Source: a plasmid
Reading direction: 5' to 3' (one strand)
Sequence record: NZ_CP071299.1
Length of the DNA stretch: 41,979 nt
The position numbers are program-made. Below, in pieces: positions 30,001-36,000 of the stretch. How positions within the stretch are numbered: the stretch's first letter is position 1; each line of letters begins with the position of its first letter.

Positions 30001-33000
30001 CAGCATCGTCGAGTTTTTTGTGGAGTAATTCTTGACTCGTTTTGTTCTTATTCGAATTGGAATAATCTTTTTTTGACAGACTATCTTGAATCAAATGAAT
30101 CTCATTTAAAATATTTTTAAGAGAAAGTTCCAATAATTTTGGCTCAGTTTCATCTAAAAAGAAGTTATTTTTTTTCAAAAATTTGAAGTGTATTTTCTCG
30201 AATTCCGTAAGCAAAACATACTGATAAATATTCAAAACGTTTTTGATTAGGCGCTCCATTTTTGACAGCGTCAGTTGTTTTTGTGATCAATTGACTGATG
30301 AGGTAACTAAATATTTCTTTATTTTTGACTTTTATTTTCAACTCATCATTTGAAACTACTGCACGATAGTAGGTAATCAACCGTTCATTATTTTCTTTGG
30401 TAGGATCAGAAGGAAGCATTACCATCGGTTGATTTTTTGAGAAAATCCCAAGCGACTGAGAGCTTTTATTGAGTTTAGTTGCCCTTGCTTCTTGCAAAAA
30501 AATATATAATATTTCTTCTAACGAACGCTCATGAAAATAAGGGAGCATTCGCAAGAATTGTTTTAATTTTTCAATTGGAAGAAAACTATTTTAAGAAAAT
30601 ATAGCTCATTTTGTGTCTAAATATTGACATTAGTCCAATTTAACAGATACAGAAATTTTGCCAATTTATCAAAAACTCTCAGATGATAATAAACAACAAA
30701 CAAACAATTAATTATGCTGAGGATAAATTAAAAAGCCAAAAGGAACAAGAAAACATAATTCATTTTAGAAATTCTTTAATCCCATATAAGCAAGCGACTG
30801 AGCAAGCATTATCTGCAGGTTTAGGTGAAGGTTATACTGATAATATTGAAACATGTACTGTGTATTGGGATAAACAGGTTAATTATGATATAGGCATCCC
30901 AATTAAAGGGGACTCAATGGAACCAGAATTTCATTATGGTCAAACTGCGCTTATAAAATATCAAAGTTCTCCTGATTATGATGGTCAAGTTTGTGCAGTA
31001 GATAATGTTTCTATGGGAAATGCTTTTATAAAATGTGTCACTGTAGAGGAAGATGGACTTCTTCTACAGTCTTTAAATATAGAAGAGGATCAAAACGGAG
31101 AAAGCAAATTTCCAGATATAAAATTATATTGGGATGATAATCCAAGAATTATAGGAAAAGTAGTTGCTGTATTTACTCCGATTGAAATTAATAATATATT
31201 TAAAAAAAAATTGGGACTCCTTAGAGTCCCTTTTAATTATTTTATATTATATATTTTGTCTTTTGTTCTTTTGTGAAAAAAAAAAGCTAGTGATTGCAAG
31301 GGATAACAGGATTATAGTCCTACAAAAAACTGTGCATAGTCCTACAAAAAACTGTGCATAGTCCTACAAAAAACTGTGTAAACAACTACAACGTTTATTG
31401 CCTTTGTAGGTATTTTGTGTTATTATTTATTTAAAACATAAAAGGAGTGGATTATGCAAGAGATAGCTACAGGAGAAAGAAATAAACAAATACAGGAAAT
31501 AAGTTCAAGGAAGGTTGCAGAGCATAACGATTTAATTAGCTCAGTTGCAAAAATGGATAAGACACCATTAAAAATGTTTGAGTTAGCTGTTTCATGTATA
31601 GATACTGATGCTCCTCCTAAAGATAATACAGTATTCTTGTCAAAAAAGGAATTATTTACTTTTTTTGATGTTTCTGATAATGATAAACATCGTCGTTTTA
31701 AGGAAGCTGTTGAAAAAATGCAAGAACAAGCTTTTTTCAGAATAAAGGAGAAAAAGAATAGAGGGTTCAAGTTTAAACGGATAGTACCTATACCTTATGT
31801 TGAGTGGAATGATTATAATGATAAAGTTTTGATACGTTTTGATCAAGCTATTATGCCGTATCTCATAGATTTAAAAAATAATTTTACGCAATATGCCATA
31901 TCAGATATTATGGAACTGAATAGCAAGTACAGTATTATTTTATATAAATGGTTCTCTATGTCTTATAATCAATTTGAGCATTACCAATATAAACCTAATA
32001 GAACGAAGAAACAATTAGAAGATTACAAGAGTCCTAGGATAATAATTAGTGACTTAAGAGAATTAACAGATACTGTTGATGACTATAGTAGATTTGATAA
32101 TTTTGAAAAAAGAGTCATAAAAGATGCAATTAAAGAAATAAATTCTTTTACTCATTTTAATGTTGAGTATGAAAAAATAAAAAAAGGGCGTTCAATCGAT
32201 TCAATACAGTTTCATATAGTTAAGAAAGCAAATTGGAAAGATGAGAACTATAAACGTAATGATGTACAAGCACAATTAACTGAAGAACAAAAACAAGCTC
32301 AAAATCAGGTTAATTATGCAGTGGCTGTTGCAAATCCATTTACCATGAAACTTATAAATTCCTCTTTGTTGTATGCAACCGATATAGCAAACCAGGACAC
32401 GATTTTAGAGCTTGCTGAGAGTGTTTATCCTGTGTATGATAAACTTGTAAAAGAACTTGGAGAAGATGCTTTAGCAACGCATATGGACTATGTACGAAGA
32501 AAGATGGTAGATTATTCAAATGAGAAAAAGAATATCGCCAAGTATTTAAGTATAGCAGCAAAACAATATCTTAATTCAAGGTTGAGTAAACAGCAAATGA
32601 AAGAGTAAGGAAGAAGTTAATACAAAAGAAAGAAAAAGGTCACACCTTTGCACGACCTTTTTCTTGACTTTATCTTATATAGGTGTTAAGATATAGGTAT
32701 GACTTAAGTAATACCTATAGAATACTAAAGTAGTCGAAAGAGGAGAATAAGGTATGCAAGTAATTAGTTTTATGGCAATTAAAGGTGGTGTAGGAAAGAC
32801 TACAATGGCTTTCCAATTTGCAAAATATTTGCAAGAAAATAATAAAAGTACATTATTAATTGATTTGGATTCACAAAAAAGTTTAACTGGTACATTTGAG
32901 ACAAAAGATTTTAATTTTAAAGATAAACACAATATTTCAGAAATTCTCAGCAATCCCCAAATCGGAATCATTGCTACTACAGTTGAAAAAAACATTGATG

Positions 33001-36000
33001 TAATTCCTTCAACTAGTAATTTAGAAGAAATCGCAGATAACTTGGCAACTAAACCTAATAAAGAGTTATTGTTATTTATGTGGTTTGTAAAAAATTCAAA
33101 AGAACTAAATCAAAAATATGATTATATTATTTTAGACTTACCGCCTGCATGGAATTTATTAACCAAAAATGGTGTGGCAGTTGCGGATAAAGTAATATCA
33201 CCAATGGAACCAAGCCGTTTTGGATACGAAAGTCATACCAAGGTATTACAAAGCGTTTCAACTTTAAAAAATGAAGTTGTTGATCCTGTCAGTGGTAAGT
33301 CATATGTTAGCGCAAAAATTTATTTTTTAGGAAATAGAGTTAAACACAATACTAATTCATCTAAAGAATTTTTAGAAGCGTTAAAAAATATAAATGATGT
33401 AATTGGAATTGTACCTGAAAAAGAAGCTATTAATACAAGTATGCTTCTTAAAAAGGGAATATTTGATTATTTAGAAGAGACAGGACAAACTCATACACAA
33501 AATAAATTCATTGCATCATTAAAAAAAGTATTCAACCAAATAGAAACAAAGGGGATAGAGTAAAATGGCAAACAAGTTTGAAGATATGACCTTTGATAAT
33601 AATGATTATCAAGTAGTAAAAAATATTTCGGAAGATAATAACACAAATTTGGGTTGGGAGAAAAAAATCAAAACTAGTTTTTCAATAAAAAAAAGTAATT
33701 CAGAAAAACTAGATGAATTAGTAAAAAAATTTAATGCTAAATCAAGGTCAGTAATTATTGATATGCTAATTGAAAAAAGTGAACTATAAAAAGTATTACC
33801 AAAGTAATACTTTTATCTTGTTAAGGTGTTCCTTTGGTATTTAATTGGTAAGAACATGATAGTACCTTATAGATTATTCTTTGAATTATGAAAGAGGTTT
33901 AAATAGATGATAGTTTAAAAGAGTTAGAAGAATAGTTTATTAATTTAAGTAGGTAGTAAACGAAGAGTAATAGCATTTATAATCAAGGATAATGTTAAGA
34001 AAAAGGTATTACTTTACGAATACTTTTCTCTTGATAAAGTAATACTGGTCTATGAAACACAGACAAAAAAGACTAGCAATTTTGCAACTAGTCTTGTCAT
34101 ATGGACTAATGTCAAATATTTAGACACAAAATGAGCTATATTTTCTTAAAATAATTTTCTTCTTTCTGATTTGGAGTTAAACCATTGTTGGCGGAATGAG
34201 GATTATAATTGTTATAAAATTGTTCGATGTATTCAAAGCAAGAGAGTTGAACTTCTTGAATGGAGTGATAAGTTCTGCGATTAATTTCTCGTTGTTTAAG
34301 ATACTTGAAAAAGACCTCAGTGACGGCATTATCATAAGGATATCCAGGCTTGGAGTAAGAAGCAAGCGATTGATGCTCATCTAATAACTTTCTAAAGGAA
34401 GCTGATTTAAATTGGCTTCCTTGGTCCGAATGAAAGATAATTGGTTCCTTAGGCTTCCTCTTATTTATAGCTATTTCTAAGGTGTCACAGGCGAGTTTGG
34501 CATCAATCCTATCACTTACTTTCCACGCAATACATTTCCTTGAGTAGAGGTCAAGAATAGCACAGAGATAAACATGTCGTTTAGGTCCTATAGAGATATA
34601 AGTGAAATCTGTTGTCCAAACTTGATTTGGGGAGTTCGGGTTAAATTCTTGTTTAAGCAGATTATCAAAAGAAAATACAGGAGCTTTCTTTGATTTAAAA
34701 CGAGGTTTGATGGTTGACATTTTAGGGAGTGTCATAGACTTGAGAAGTCTTAAGATACGGCCTTCAGAAATATTAACGCCATAATCACGCAGAAGAATGA
34801 TTTTAAAAGCTCTCGTTCCAATTCTTTTCTTGGCTTTCATATAAATCTCAAGGAGTAATTTTCTCAAGCGTTGATTTTCTACTTCACGCTTCGAAGGCCT
34901 CTTGCTTATGAAGTTATAGTAGGTGGAACGATTGACATGTAAAACACGACAGAGCATAACTGTCGTGTGTTCAAATCGGAGTCTGTAGATGGCTTTCAAT
35001 CTTACTTGGAGTTTTGCATGAATATGGCACTCGCTTTTTTTAAGATCAGATTTTCTTCCTCTAGTTGGGCATTTCTTTTTTGTAATTCTTGAATCTGTTT
35101 AGCAGTCAACACCGTATTATCTTCAAGACGCACTTGAGAGTACTGCTTAATCCATTTTGCAAGTGCAGAAGAAGATACCCCATAATCTTTACAGAGTTCA
35201 GTTTGTGTCTTACCAGTTTGATAGAGATTAACGAGCGATTGTTTGAAATCCTCGTCGTAACGTTTAAAACCTGACATAAAAGTCCTTTCATTTTTGTGTC
35301 TTAATAGACAGATTATAACACACAATTTTCTCTCCACTTTTATAGTATAGCTCCAATTCAAGTTGATAAAATTATTTTGGACAACATTATAGAGTCCGTT
35401 CAAGAACATTGATAGTAATTTTGCGATAATTTCTGAAAATATTTTTTCAGTCAGATATTACAGAAAATTTATATCAGAATGCTTTTAAAAGGCCTTAAAA
35501 GGCAAAATATGAGCTTATAGGACTATTCAAGCATTAAAGGGAGTGAAATATCTATTTTTCACTTTCTTTAGTGCTTTTTCGTTGGTTTGCTCAACGACAG
35601 GAGCATTATTTTTTACAAAGTAAAAAATAGAGTTTTTTTAAAATTCAATCAAGTCGCTAGGTCTAAAATTTAAAAACCAAAATTTAAGATCTAGCAGCTT
35701 GATTATTTAATCGTCTAAATTTCAAAATCATCATCACGTGCTTTATGTTTTGGACTTTGATTTTTTTGATAGGCTTCTAATCGCTGTTCTGATTTTTGAT
35801 AGTATTGAATGTTTTTATCGACTTTATATAAAGTATCTCGCAAATCATCACGTTCTTTTGTTAAGTTTTTAATGGTATCTCTGATAGAGGTATCTTCATA
35901 AGGCAAGGTTTTTGTTGTTTCCACGTATTCTAAAATCGGTTCTGTTGCAAAGTTTTAAATAAAGAATAAAATCCCTTACGGTATCTATGATTTAAGCTGG

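Follow-up and report, generated by a model that had tools for sequence, protein, structure and literature searches.

The 41,979-nucleotide stretch of plasmid sequence analysed here (record NZ_CP071299.1; hereafter the window) carries a replication and partition module set between two inverted copies of the terminus of an IS3-family insertion sequence (IS), one of them a solo fragment and the other continuous with an intact element (Table 1). The content between the two copies is as the earlier note had described it, in that the S24 gene, the iterons, rep, parA, a small par ORF and the repeats could all be located. RepB domains, tandem 22-bp iterons and an AT-rich region are found together, as expected of a lactococcal theta replicon, and no other Rep match occurs among the other plasmid ORFs scanned for a second replication initiator. 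Short T-rich repeats occupy 31231-31274, and GC is 29%. The parA gene and the 74-aa ORF behind it are conserved in ~300 plasmids, and the conserved module ends with ...CTTGTCATA at 34101, which is the same limit in all related plasmids.

Table 1. Features of the rep-par region and its flanks, in window coordinates
Feature	Position	Strand	Basis or remark
Left outer flank (Y)	29248-30581	-	98.8% identical to pIMAU11823A
mobC/NikA-like gene in Y	29300-29686	-	Pfam NikA-like/MobC
3' part of 348-aa mobilisation-module gene, 5' part deleted	remnant ORFs 29981-30259, 30165-30554	-	
Solo IRR (orfB-proximal) terminal remnant of second IS copy	30578-30637	+	repeat search, blastn, alignment
5'-truncated XRE-HTH/S24 (LexA/CI-like) repressor gene (S24')	30683-31276	+	Pfam Peptidase_S24 only
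Bidirectional terminator-like hairpin	31213-31230	.	~10 bp inside homology switch point
Origin iterons	31314-31378 (-31391)	+	three perfect 22-bp units and a degenerate partial unit
repB, theta-type initiator	31454-32608	+	Pfam Rep3_N, Rep3_C, L_lactis_RepB_C
parA	32754-33563	+	Pfam AAA_31/CbiA/ParA
74-aa putative ParA partner	33565-33789	+	no Pfam family
Repeats downstream of par	33788-33827, 34001-34040	.	direct and inverted arrangements
IS3-family element, probably ISLL6	34102-35355, 1254 bp	-	intact; HTH_Tnp_1 and rve, conserved boundaries
orfB	34136-34999	-	rve, PF00665, E 2e-31
orfA	35002-35277	-	HTH_Tnp_1, PF01527, E 2e-12
Right outer flank (R')	35356-35937	-	relaxase gene 3' end and downstream region; cut at 35938 by the IS1216-like element
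IS1216-like (IS6-family) element	35938-36746	-	starts narAB segment derived from Enterococcus plasmids

The intact element has the organization of an IS3-family member. Pfam matches and ORF coordinates place an OrfA with a helix-turn-helix domain and an OrfB with a DDE (rve) domain in overlapping frames, and an A7G slippery site near 35040 (minus strand ...ATCTTAAAAAAAGCGAGT..., just ahead of the orfA stop codon) provides, at the level of the motif, a predicted A6G-type -1 frameshift signal in the orfA/orfB overlap. The terminal inverted repeats are imperfect and of the TG...CA type (TGGACTAATG... at 34102, ...TATAGCTCCA at 35355), the IRR (orfB-proximal) tip TGGAC at 34102 facing left into the module and the IRL tip ...GCTCCA lying at 35355. 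The earlier note had extended the element to 35399; its actual end follows from more than 100 plasmid copies that stop at query position 1254 or 1255 and from three plasmids in which three different flanks begin immediately after GCTCCA. The element is found in 243 records and in many contexts, and 143 plasmid records contain at least 80% of it with identical boundaries. The exact OrfA sequence lies on at least 1000 contigs, with F9VEW2_LACGL as its UniRef representative, a code that we take to denote L. garvieae Lg2. Cluster names in the database annotation are generic ("transposase", "InsO family") and give no specific IS name, and the PLSDB tables leave out frameshifted transposase genes. 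A report of 23 ISLL6 copies in L. garvieae Lg2 (PMC8942021), taken with this UniRef representative, suggests that the element is probably ISLL6. It lacks the target-site duplication of 3-5 bp expected for the family, with ATA preceding and ATT following it; we interpret this as a sign of flank exchange after insertion and not as an argument against IS3 membership. No target-site duplications were found around the IS copies in the window, pQA554, pLP712 and pS127, and they are therefore unusable for ordering events.

Self-alignment of the window, as the earlier note had proposed, recovered the inverted repeat. Positions 30578-30637 are the reverse complement of 34102-34162, with agreement at 59 of 61 positions, and a repeat search of the window returned arms of 48 nt at 30578-30625 and 34115-34162 that are 98% complementary. 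Positions 1-61 of the IS match 30637-30578 in blastn (96.7%, one mismatch, one gap), this being the sole further piece of the element in the 42-kb window, and a match of 60 nt this good cannot have arisen by chance within 42 kb. The 58-bp inverted IS3 termini of the earlier note are thus real and IS-derived; global alignment resolves the differences between the arms into an A/G mismatch and a one-base indel in a homopolymer, where two indels had been counted, with a longest unbroken identical run of ~39 bp. Both tips face the module, the left ending ...GTCCA at 30637 and the right beginning TGGAC... at 34102.

The left fragment comprises the terminal 56-60 bp of a second IS copy, its tip ...GACATTAGTCCA at 30637 pointing right, into the module. 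It covers the final 8 codons of orfB with the stop codon, and a 41-aa ORF ending ...EENYFKKI matches the OrfB C-terminus, in agreement with the suggestion that the solo terminal fragment derives from the same element. Its start can be placed only within 30578-30582, since four bases, GAAG, are common to the other side of a deletion joint. That joint can be read to the base: the Y flank runs ...CAATTGGAAG and then TAAGCAGG, the IS runs ...AGAAAGAAG and then AAAATTATT, and the window has the fused sequence ...CAATTGGAAGAAAACTATT. The Y flank ends in this microhomology at 30578-30581, by which the IS end is fused to the interior of a 348-aa mobilisation-module gene that is whole in pIMAU11823A and there runs on past the position of the joint. 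The IS-end/S24 junction itself is carried by 211 records, and ~200 Lactococcus plasmids have the IS terminus beside the same truncated XRE-S24 gene. In 4 of 4 examined plasmids with the IS terminus at S24, the body of the IS extends well past the terminal 60 bp, the S24-side copy being full-length in pQA554, pLP712 and pS127 and internally deleted in p275A. Together with the readable joint, these relatives bear out the second of the two explanations originally offered for the repeat, namely the loss by deletion of all but this end of a second IS copy.

The opposite notion, of a repeat native to the replicon and associated with its iterons or centromere, draws on nothing but the occurrence of the repeat at either edge of the rep-par block, and we regard it as practically untenable. 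The ~300 plasmids with the same rep-parAB block lack the repeat and diverge exactly at 34101; the right copy is continuous with the complete IS, and the left copy codes for the end of orfB. This had been named in advance as the finding that would overturn an IS origin, and the comparison with IS-free relatives, whose match stops at 34101, speaks plainly for the IS.

The gene next to the left tip has itself been shaped by the IS. S24' retains the peptidase domain, and the HTH domain is absent, so that the ORF is a truncated remnant of an HTH-S24 repressor gene. It is without the first ~75 residues of an intact 246-aa homologue, P0035, in the alignment. In pQA554, which has the widespread IS-S24 junction, the frame is open from the IS tip and corresponds to residues 41 onward of the intact 246-aa protein; relative to that junction, the window has lost a further 60 bp and its upstream reading frame is shifted by an indel. 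As judged from these sequence comparisons, the IS is shown to interrupt a predicted XRE-HTH/S24 repressor gene near codon 40. Homology then changes from the S24-side plasmid set to the rep-par set at ~31202-31206. The left remnant retains a TTGACA hexamer 8 nt from its tip. In a promoter scan, no site qualified as a hybrid outward promoter formed from the TTGACA of IRR and flanking DNA, and promoter-like sites in the region were no commoner than in shuffled sequence.

At the right junction, the site at 34101 is unoccupied by an IS in the ~300 related plasmids, and the continuation expected of the target (GATCAGATTTTAC..., with a 116-aa gene and a Y-family polymerase operon) is absent from the window. 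The R' segment found in its place matches pLG1267-optrA, p275A, pS127 and p275D on the opposite strand, and in contig L013 it is followed by the full relaxase gene and mobC. R' is thus DNA whose place in other plasmids is upstream of the IS copy next to S24: pS127, pLP712 and p275A have the order R-IS-S24' in the opposite relative orientation, pLG1267-optrA has R-S24' without the IS, and the junction of IRL with ATTCAAGTTG... is common to the window and p275D. The location of R' upstream of the S24-side copy in other plasmids, together with the missing target duplication, argues that flanks were exchanged through the IS.

Overall, we consider it likely that a deletion produced the left repeat, as the non-functional stump of another copy of the IS that stands intact at 34102-35355, and that flanks were exchanged via the IS. 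The ancestor would have had the order mobC-relaxase-R-IS-S24'-ori-repB-parAB-(116-aa gene/Y-polymerase). Insertion of a second IS copy at the end of par, in the inverted orientation, would have followed, and homologous recombination between the two copies would have swapped their outer flanks, most simply by a flip of the 3.4-kb module. The deletion that took ~1.2 kb of the S24-side copy together with its upstream neighbours and left the stump is itself directly visible, and would have been the later event. The inversion step is a reconstruction, not an observation. A search of PLSDB with a synthetic query did not find the sibling junction expected from simple parB-side insertion (the IRL of the IS, ATA and GATCAG..., on the Y-polymerase side). 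The parB-IS junction could also have arisen without inversion, by a deletion anchored at the IS tip, for which L. garvieae CP066001.1, with an IRR remnant 424 bp further from parB, offers a possible starting point. Alternatively, the flanks may have come from another plasmid by intermolecular IS-IS recombination, in keeping with R regions that are 85-89% identical between the window and pLG1267-optrA, pS127 and p275D, against 96-97% for the module. On the reading that we favour, the stump today has no obligatory role and contributes inverted homology over 60 bp and a single orphan end for transposase binding.

Eight independent sequences span the deletion joint: one complete plasmid, six assembly contigs (one of them a PLSDB plasmid) and one metagenome contig. 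The identical arrangement is present in contig L013 (100% over 11.3 kb), in contigs L014-L017 and in the metagenome contig L018, while the L. garvieae plasmid NZ_CP146752.1 has the arrangement of the window with a further deletion. Within PLSDB the joint of Y with the stump occurs only in NZ_CP146752.1, and the junction of the tip with ATTTAACAG in no record; an exact-protein look-up finds both in draft assemblies. The Y flank is common to all eight carriers, and R' to every contig long enough to include it.

A self-contained replicon bracketed by inverted IS sequences invites the view, put forward as a possibility in the earlier note, that the two ends let the S24-ori-repB-parAB block move as one unit in the manner of a composite transposon. 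Prior to the deletion, the two inverted copies would both have been complete, and their outer IRL tips could in principle have delimited an IS-module-IS unit. The surviving geometry makes this very improbable. Both remaining tips, at 30637 and 34102, are inward-facing and so do not lie outermost in a mobile segment, and the deletion has taken the outer end of the left copy. Lying outside both IS tips, the module cannot transpose as a unit, and transposon geometry belongs to the other 38.5 kb of the plasmid. A target duplication is missing at the right IS, and direct repeats around the same unit in different contexts were not found: the bracketed block occurs in no second context, with the Y flank shared by 8 of 8 carriers. 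Moreover, the S24-side copy is old, being shared with ~200 plasmids that have a different downstream replicon, and hence did not arrive together with the module.

Two further readings would give the repeat a present-day activity. One is that RecA-dependent recombination across the 60-bp repeat flips the module in present populations. The arms, with 59 of 61 positions shared and ~39 bp uninterrupted, offer a substrate, an inversion would be neutral for the replicon, and a past inversion between full-length copies is the very history that we prefer. On the other hand, in Gram-positive bacteria 60 bp interrupted by a mismatch and an indel would fall close to or short of the length for efficient homologous recombination. 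All eight sequences spanning the joint are in one orientation and none is inverted, and a scan with the deletion joint for the inverted isoform returned no match in the genome collection and a single, window-type match in the metagenome collection, although a comparison of assembled sequences is blind to minority isoforms inside one culture. Ongoing inversion is accordingly rated as improbable.

The other reading, also doubtful and only marginally less remote, is that the stump is a live substrate on which OrfAB acts in trans at the orphan IRR tip, giving tip-anchored deletions, and which together with the tip at 34102 may define a 38.5-kb inside-out transposon. Three different neighbours of the tip are known: 60 bp and then S24' (~200 plasmids), S24' directly (this lineage), and the 3' end of repB (NZ_CP146752.1). 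The last of these plasmids shares the upstream deletion joint, so that the change of neighbour at its tip came later than the truncation of the copy. The stump has kept its terminal 56-60 bp with the TTGACA hexamer, and an intact source of transposase lies 3.4 kb away. However, the junction in NZ_CP146752.1 falls in a 4-bp CAAT microhomology and is explained by ordinary illegitimate recombination, and homologous recombination of the 60 bp with a further copy of the IS would also swap neighbours. The use of two IRR ends over 38 kb by an IS3-family transposase, of the copy-out/paste-in type, is an assumption for this element, and loss of the module would deprive the plasmid of its only replicon. 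The stronger proposition, that the orphan tip, given transposase in trans, still undergoes cleavage or strand transfer and that the two tips do define the 38.5-kb inside-out transposon, is one to which we give little credence. If true, a live tip would explain the three different neighbours, and the entire optrA-fexA-tet(L)-tet(M)-erm-narAB cargo could leave its Lactococcus replicon for a chromosome or another plasmid.

Other stumps of the element were seen in related sequences (38-bp IRL in p275D, 45-bp IRR in CP066001.1, 297-bp in NZ_CP146752.1). The idea that short stumps of 38-60 bp represent transposase-protected ends was considered and found unsupported, in that longer partial copies (297 bp, 540 bp, internal deletions) are seen equally readily in a sampling of stump lengths that is biased toward junctions.

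The inverted repeat is, in our assessment, an ordinary IS relic, of an already-known kind, in a mosaic Lactococcus plasmid with optrA, fexA, tet, erm and narAB. In annotation it should be labelled an IS remnant, and the S24 ORF should be called a truncated repressor gene; describing the rep-par block as a transposable replicon is unwarranted. The locus provides a base-level history of a Lactococcus theta replicon reshaped by one IS3-family element and later loaded, by IS1216 modules from Enterococcus, with linezolid, phenicol, tetracycline, macrolide and ionophore resistance genes. Its importance beyond annotation is small, and it is useful background for tracking this plasmid lineage.

Comparison with known systems leads to the same placement. 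ISLL6-like IS3-family elements of L. lactis and L. garvieae share with the intact copy the length of 1254 bp, imperfect TG...CA repeats, an HTH_Tnp_1 OrfA, the A7G site and an rve OrfB, and they are multi-copy in Lactococcus plasmids and chromosomes; the copy at 34102-35355 differs in being without a target-site duplication, and its ISLL6 name is inferred. Solo IS ends left by IS-associated deletions in mosaic lactococcal plasmids likewise consist of a short terminus fused by microhomology to unrelated DNA, and the only particularity of the stump described here is that it is inverted with respect to an intact copy lying 3.4 kb off, on the far side of the only replicon of the plasmid. Composite transposons of the Tn10/Tn5 type, and their inside-out transposition, also involve two inverted IS ends, and the inward tips of the window correspond to their inside ends. 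They differ from the window, where one IS is complete and the other has lost its outer end, the module lies outside both tips, and neither a flanking duplication nor a second insertion context is found. Lactococcal theta replicons of the pCI305/pWV02 type have the same RepB domains, 22-bp iterons upstream, and parA with a 74-aa ORF downstream; the rep-par block, 96-97% identical to that of ~300 plasmids, is an ordinary member of this type that happens to be flanked by IS sequences.

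The inverted 58-bp copies of an IS terminus reported in the earlier note to flank the replication and partition module are confirmed by self-comparison of the window. An inverted-repeat search returned arms at 30578-30625 and 34115-34162 (48 nt, 98% complementarity), and blastn with the IS as query against the complete window aligned 30578-30637 with 34102-34162, where 59 of 61 positions agree and the differences are one mismatch and one single-base indel. That search found no further fragment of this IS3-family element in all 41,979 bases. A repeat of this kind cannot be attributed to chance. 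The repeated 60 bp represent the orfB-proximal end (IRR) of the IS; the left copy runs from 30578-30582 to the IS tip at 30637 and still codes for the final eight orfB codons, ...EENYFKKI*.

The right copy is an intact element (see table) with ends TGGAC... and ...CTCCA, and with an A7G slippery motif in the orfA/orfB overlap. It ends at 35355 and not at 35399 as first proposed, since query base 1254 or 1255 is the last one matched in more than 100 plasmid copies; in three plasmids, three unrelated flanks immediately beyond ...TATAGCTCCA mark the same end, and the long orfA reading frame simply extends past the IS tip. The element occurs in 243 plasmid records (143 nearly complete), almost all from Lactococcus, and its exact OrfA protein in at least 1000 contigs. 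The UniRef representative of OrfA is F9VEW2_LACGL, a code which we take to denote L. garvieae Lg2. As that strain is a reported carrier of 23 ISLL6 copies (PMC8942021), the element is probably ISLL6. In the features examined it conforms to the IS3 family, except that no target duplication is found at the right IS (ATA on one side, ATT on the other), an absence ascribed to flank exchange.

Features of the window and of its resistance cargo
Feature	Position	Strand	Remarks
mobC	29300-29686		In the mobilisation module left of 30578
Remnant of 348-aa gene	29981-30554	minus	Two overlapping ORFs, 92 and 129 aa
S24', 5'-truncated XRE-HTH/S24 repressor gene	30683-31276		
Bidirectional terminator-like hairpin	31213-31230		
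Complete IS3-family insertion sequence	34102-35355	minus	Assigned from ORFs, domains, ends and conserved boundaries
OrfB	34136-34999	minus	rve/DDE domain
OrfA, 91 aa	35002-35277	minus	HTH_Tnp_1 domain
IS1216-like, four copies	5794-6602, 9359-10167, 18693-19501, 35938-36746		98-99% alike
Second IS6-family type, two copies	2479-3286, 28450-29243		96% alike
MFS pump, 458 aa			tet(L) by annotation in relatives
tet(M)-type gene, 646 aa			
ABC-F protein, 655 aa			Annotated optrA
MFS pump, 475 aa			Annotated fexA
Erm-type methylase, 245 aa			
narAB			Among resistance genes on Enterococcus-like segments

The orientation of the two tips bears directly on the suggestion that the replicon might be mobilised as a unit. 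Read on the plus strand, ...GTCCA closes the left stump at 30637, which makes it a right-end tip whose interior lies leftward; the right IS opens with TGGAC at 34102 and is a left-end tip whose interior lies rightward. Both ends thus leave the module on their outer side, and it cannot be cargo of any transposon bounded by them. Transposon geometry belongs to the rest of the plasmid, 38.5 kb. Readings of the arrangement as a composite transposon and as an invertible segment were both rejected, each failing in a defining feature that was tested.

The origin of the stump is apparent from related plasmids, 211 records of which match 30578-31206 in two pieces. At the position of the left copy the terminus belongs to a full-length IS in pQA554, pLP712 and pS127, and to an IS with an internal deletion in p275A; in these four, 60 bp missing from the window lie between the IS tip and the sequence that the window has from 30638. 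The mobilisation module on the other side runs on as a 348-aa gene in pIMAU11823A and one other plasmid. Comparing module (...CAATTGGAAG/TAAGCAGG), IS (...AGAAAGAAG/AAAATTATT) and window (...CAATTGGAAGAAAACTATT) resolved the joint to the base. It is a deletion, placed at a GAAG microhomology of 4 bp, in which the 348-aa gene lost its 5' third and the IS about 1.2 kb. This base-level joint demonstrates the second alternative of the earlier note, in which a second IS copy lost all but this fragment through a deletion. What is left of the 348-aa gene is a single 188-aa ORF in the L. garvieae plasmid NZ_CP146752.1 and in the related contig L014; its split state in the window thus indicates an additional frameshift.

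The missing 60 bp belong to a coding sequence: pQA554 has an open frame starting at the IS tip (NPKDKNLRQLADSLNVSFEYL...), and this frame is identical to an intact 246-aa XRE-HTH/S24 protein of other Lactococcus genomes from residue 41 on. What was called the "S24 protein gene" is therefore the 3' part left over from a LexA/CI-like repressor gene, interrupted by the IS in its HTH domain. In the window, another 60 bp of S24' are gone and an indel puts the upstream frame out of register. Homology to about 200 plasmids with the IS-S24' junction stops at 31206 and homology to about 300 rep-parAB plasmids starts at 31202, both limits falling some 10 bp before the hairpin; the initiator that follows S24' in most plasmids is another one, of 450 aa. 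A separate recombination event brought the S24 remnant together with this replicon.

On the right, 31202-34101 is common to about 300 plasmids (96-97% identity), all of which cease to match at 34101, and the four inspected continue from ...CTTGTCATA into GATCAGATTTTAC...; 34101/34102 is therefore a site that is otherwise empty. In pLG1267-optrA, which of the PLSDB plasmids is the closest relative in S24'-ori-repB-parAB, ...CTTGTCATA leads into the end of a 116-aa gene and a Y-family polymerase operon, and the relaxase-downstream region R lies directly upstream of S24' in direct orientation. Polymerase-side sequence was not found beyond the right IS of the window, where 35356-35937 comprises the 3' end of the relaxase gene and its downstream region (R) in reverse orientation; in contigs L013 and L014, where 35938 is free of the IS1216 insertion, the sequence continues into the whole relaxase gene and mobC. 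The junction IRL/ATTCAAGTTGATAAAATT... is old, recurring in p275D, where just 38 bp of the IS remain. The order in pS127, pLP712 and p275A is mobC-relaxase-R-IS(IRL..IRR)-S24'; their R-to-IS linkage is that of the window, but the IS adjoins S24' there, not parB. In relatives without the IS, the 116-aa gene follows parB on the opposite strand (pLG1267-optrA, 7141-8947; pLLN8-2, 4008-4358), next to the polymerase gene in the former. Taken with the XRE-S24 repressor on the upstream side of the origin, these genes resemble an SOS-type mutagenesis module that would formerly have flanked the replicon; both of its parts are destroyed or lost in the window.

The simplest history would begin with an ancestor ordered mobC-relaxase-R-IS-S24'-ori-repB-parAB-(116-aa gene/polymerase), into which a second IS copy would have entered at 34101 in inverted orientation. 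Recombination between the two copies would then have flipped the module, placing R-IS beside parB and the other copy beside S24', and the GAAG deletion would have removed most of the latter. The sibling junction predicted by insertion followed by inversion is not in PLSDB. A tip-anchored deletion from an arrangement like that of CP066001.1, which carries an IRR stump 424 bp beyond parB, would also fit, as would an intermolecular IS-IS exchange.

Contig L013 shares both the joint of the left flank with the stump and the parB/IS junction, and is identical to the window over 24683-35937 (100%). Contigs L014 to L017 share the first joint and, except for L017, which ends before it, the second; metagenome contig L018 has the first and likewise ends before the second. 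NZ_CP146752.1 has both and lacks 30638-32565; a CAAT microhomology spans the point where its stump tip is fused to the repB 3' end. The inverted module was found in none of these eight sequences (L013-L018, NZ_CP146752.1 and the window). Other stumps of the same IS, each fused to unrelated DNA, occur in CP066001.1 (IRR, 45 bp, 6526-6570), p275D (IRL, 38 bp, 4036-4073) and NZ_CP146752.1 (IRR, 297 bp, 28789-29085). The three different neighbours that adjoin this IS tip among related plasmids are compatible with ordinary illegitimate or homologous recombination; residual transposase action on an orphan end is an improbable source. Lactococcal plasmids routinely contain IS stumps and undergo inversions and deletions mediated by IS elements. 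Overall the finding is an ordinary one, the repeat and its reading as an IS-derived remnant having been correct, and that of a mobilisable replicon wrong.

An IS6-family element runs unbroken across the ends of the window (41715-41979 joined to 1-545), which is therefore a complete 41,979-bp circular plasmid linearised inside that element; among contigs with the exact S24' protein, the longest is also 41,979 bp. Its resistance segments (within 3482-18289 and 35938-41979) are 93-99% identical to Enterococcus plasmids and interspersed with IS1216-like copies, which with the second IS6-family type offer many openings for IS26-style cointegration and deletion. Resistance to linezolid, phenicols, tetracycline, macrolides and ionophores thus resides on a Lactococcus theta replicon. 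The sole replication initiator found in the plasmid is repB (31454), and the replicon, with its 22-bp iterons, is a standard member of the lactococcal Rep3/RepB theta replicons.
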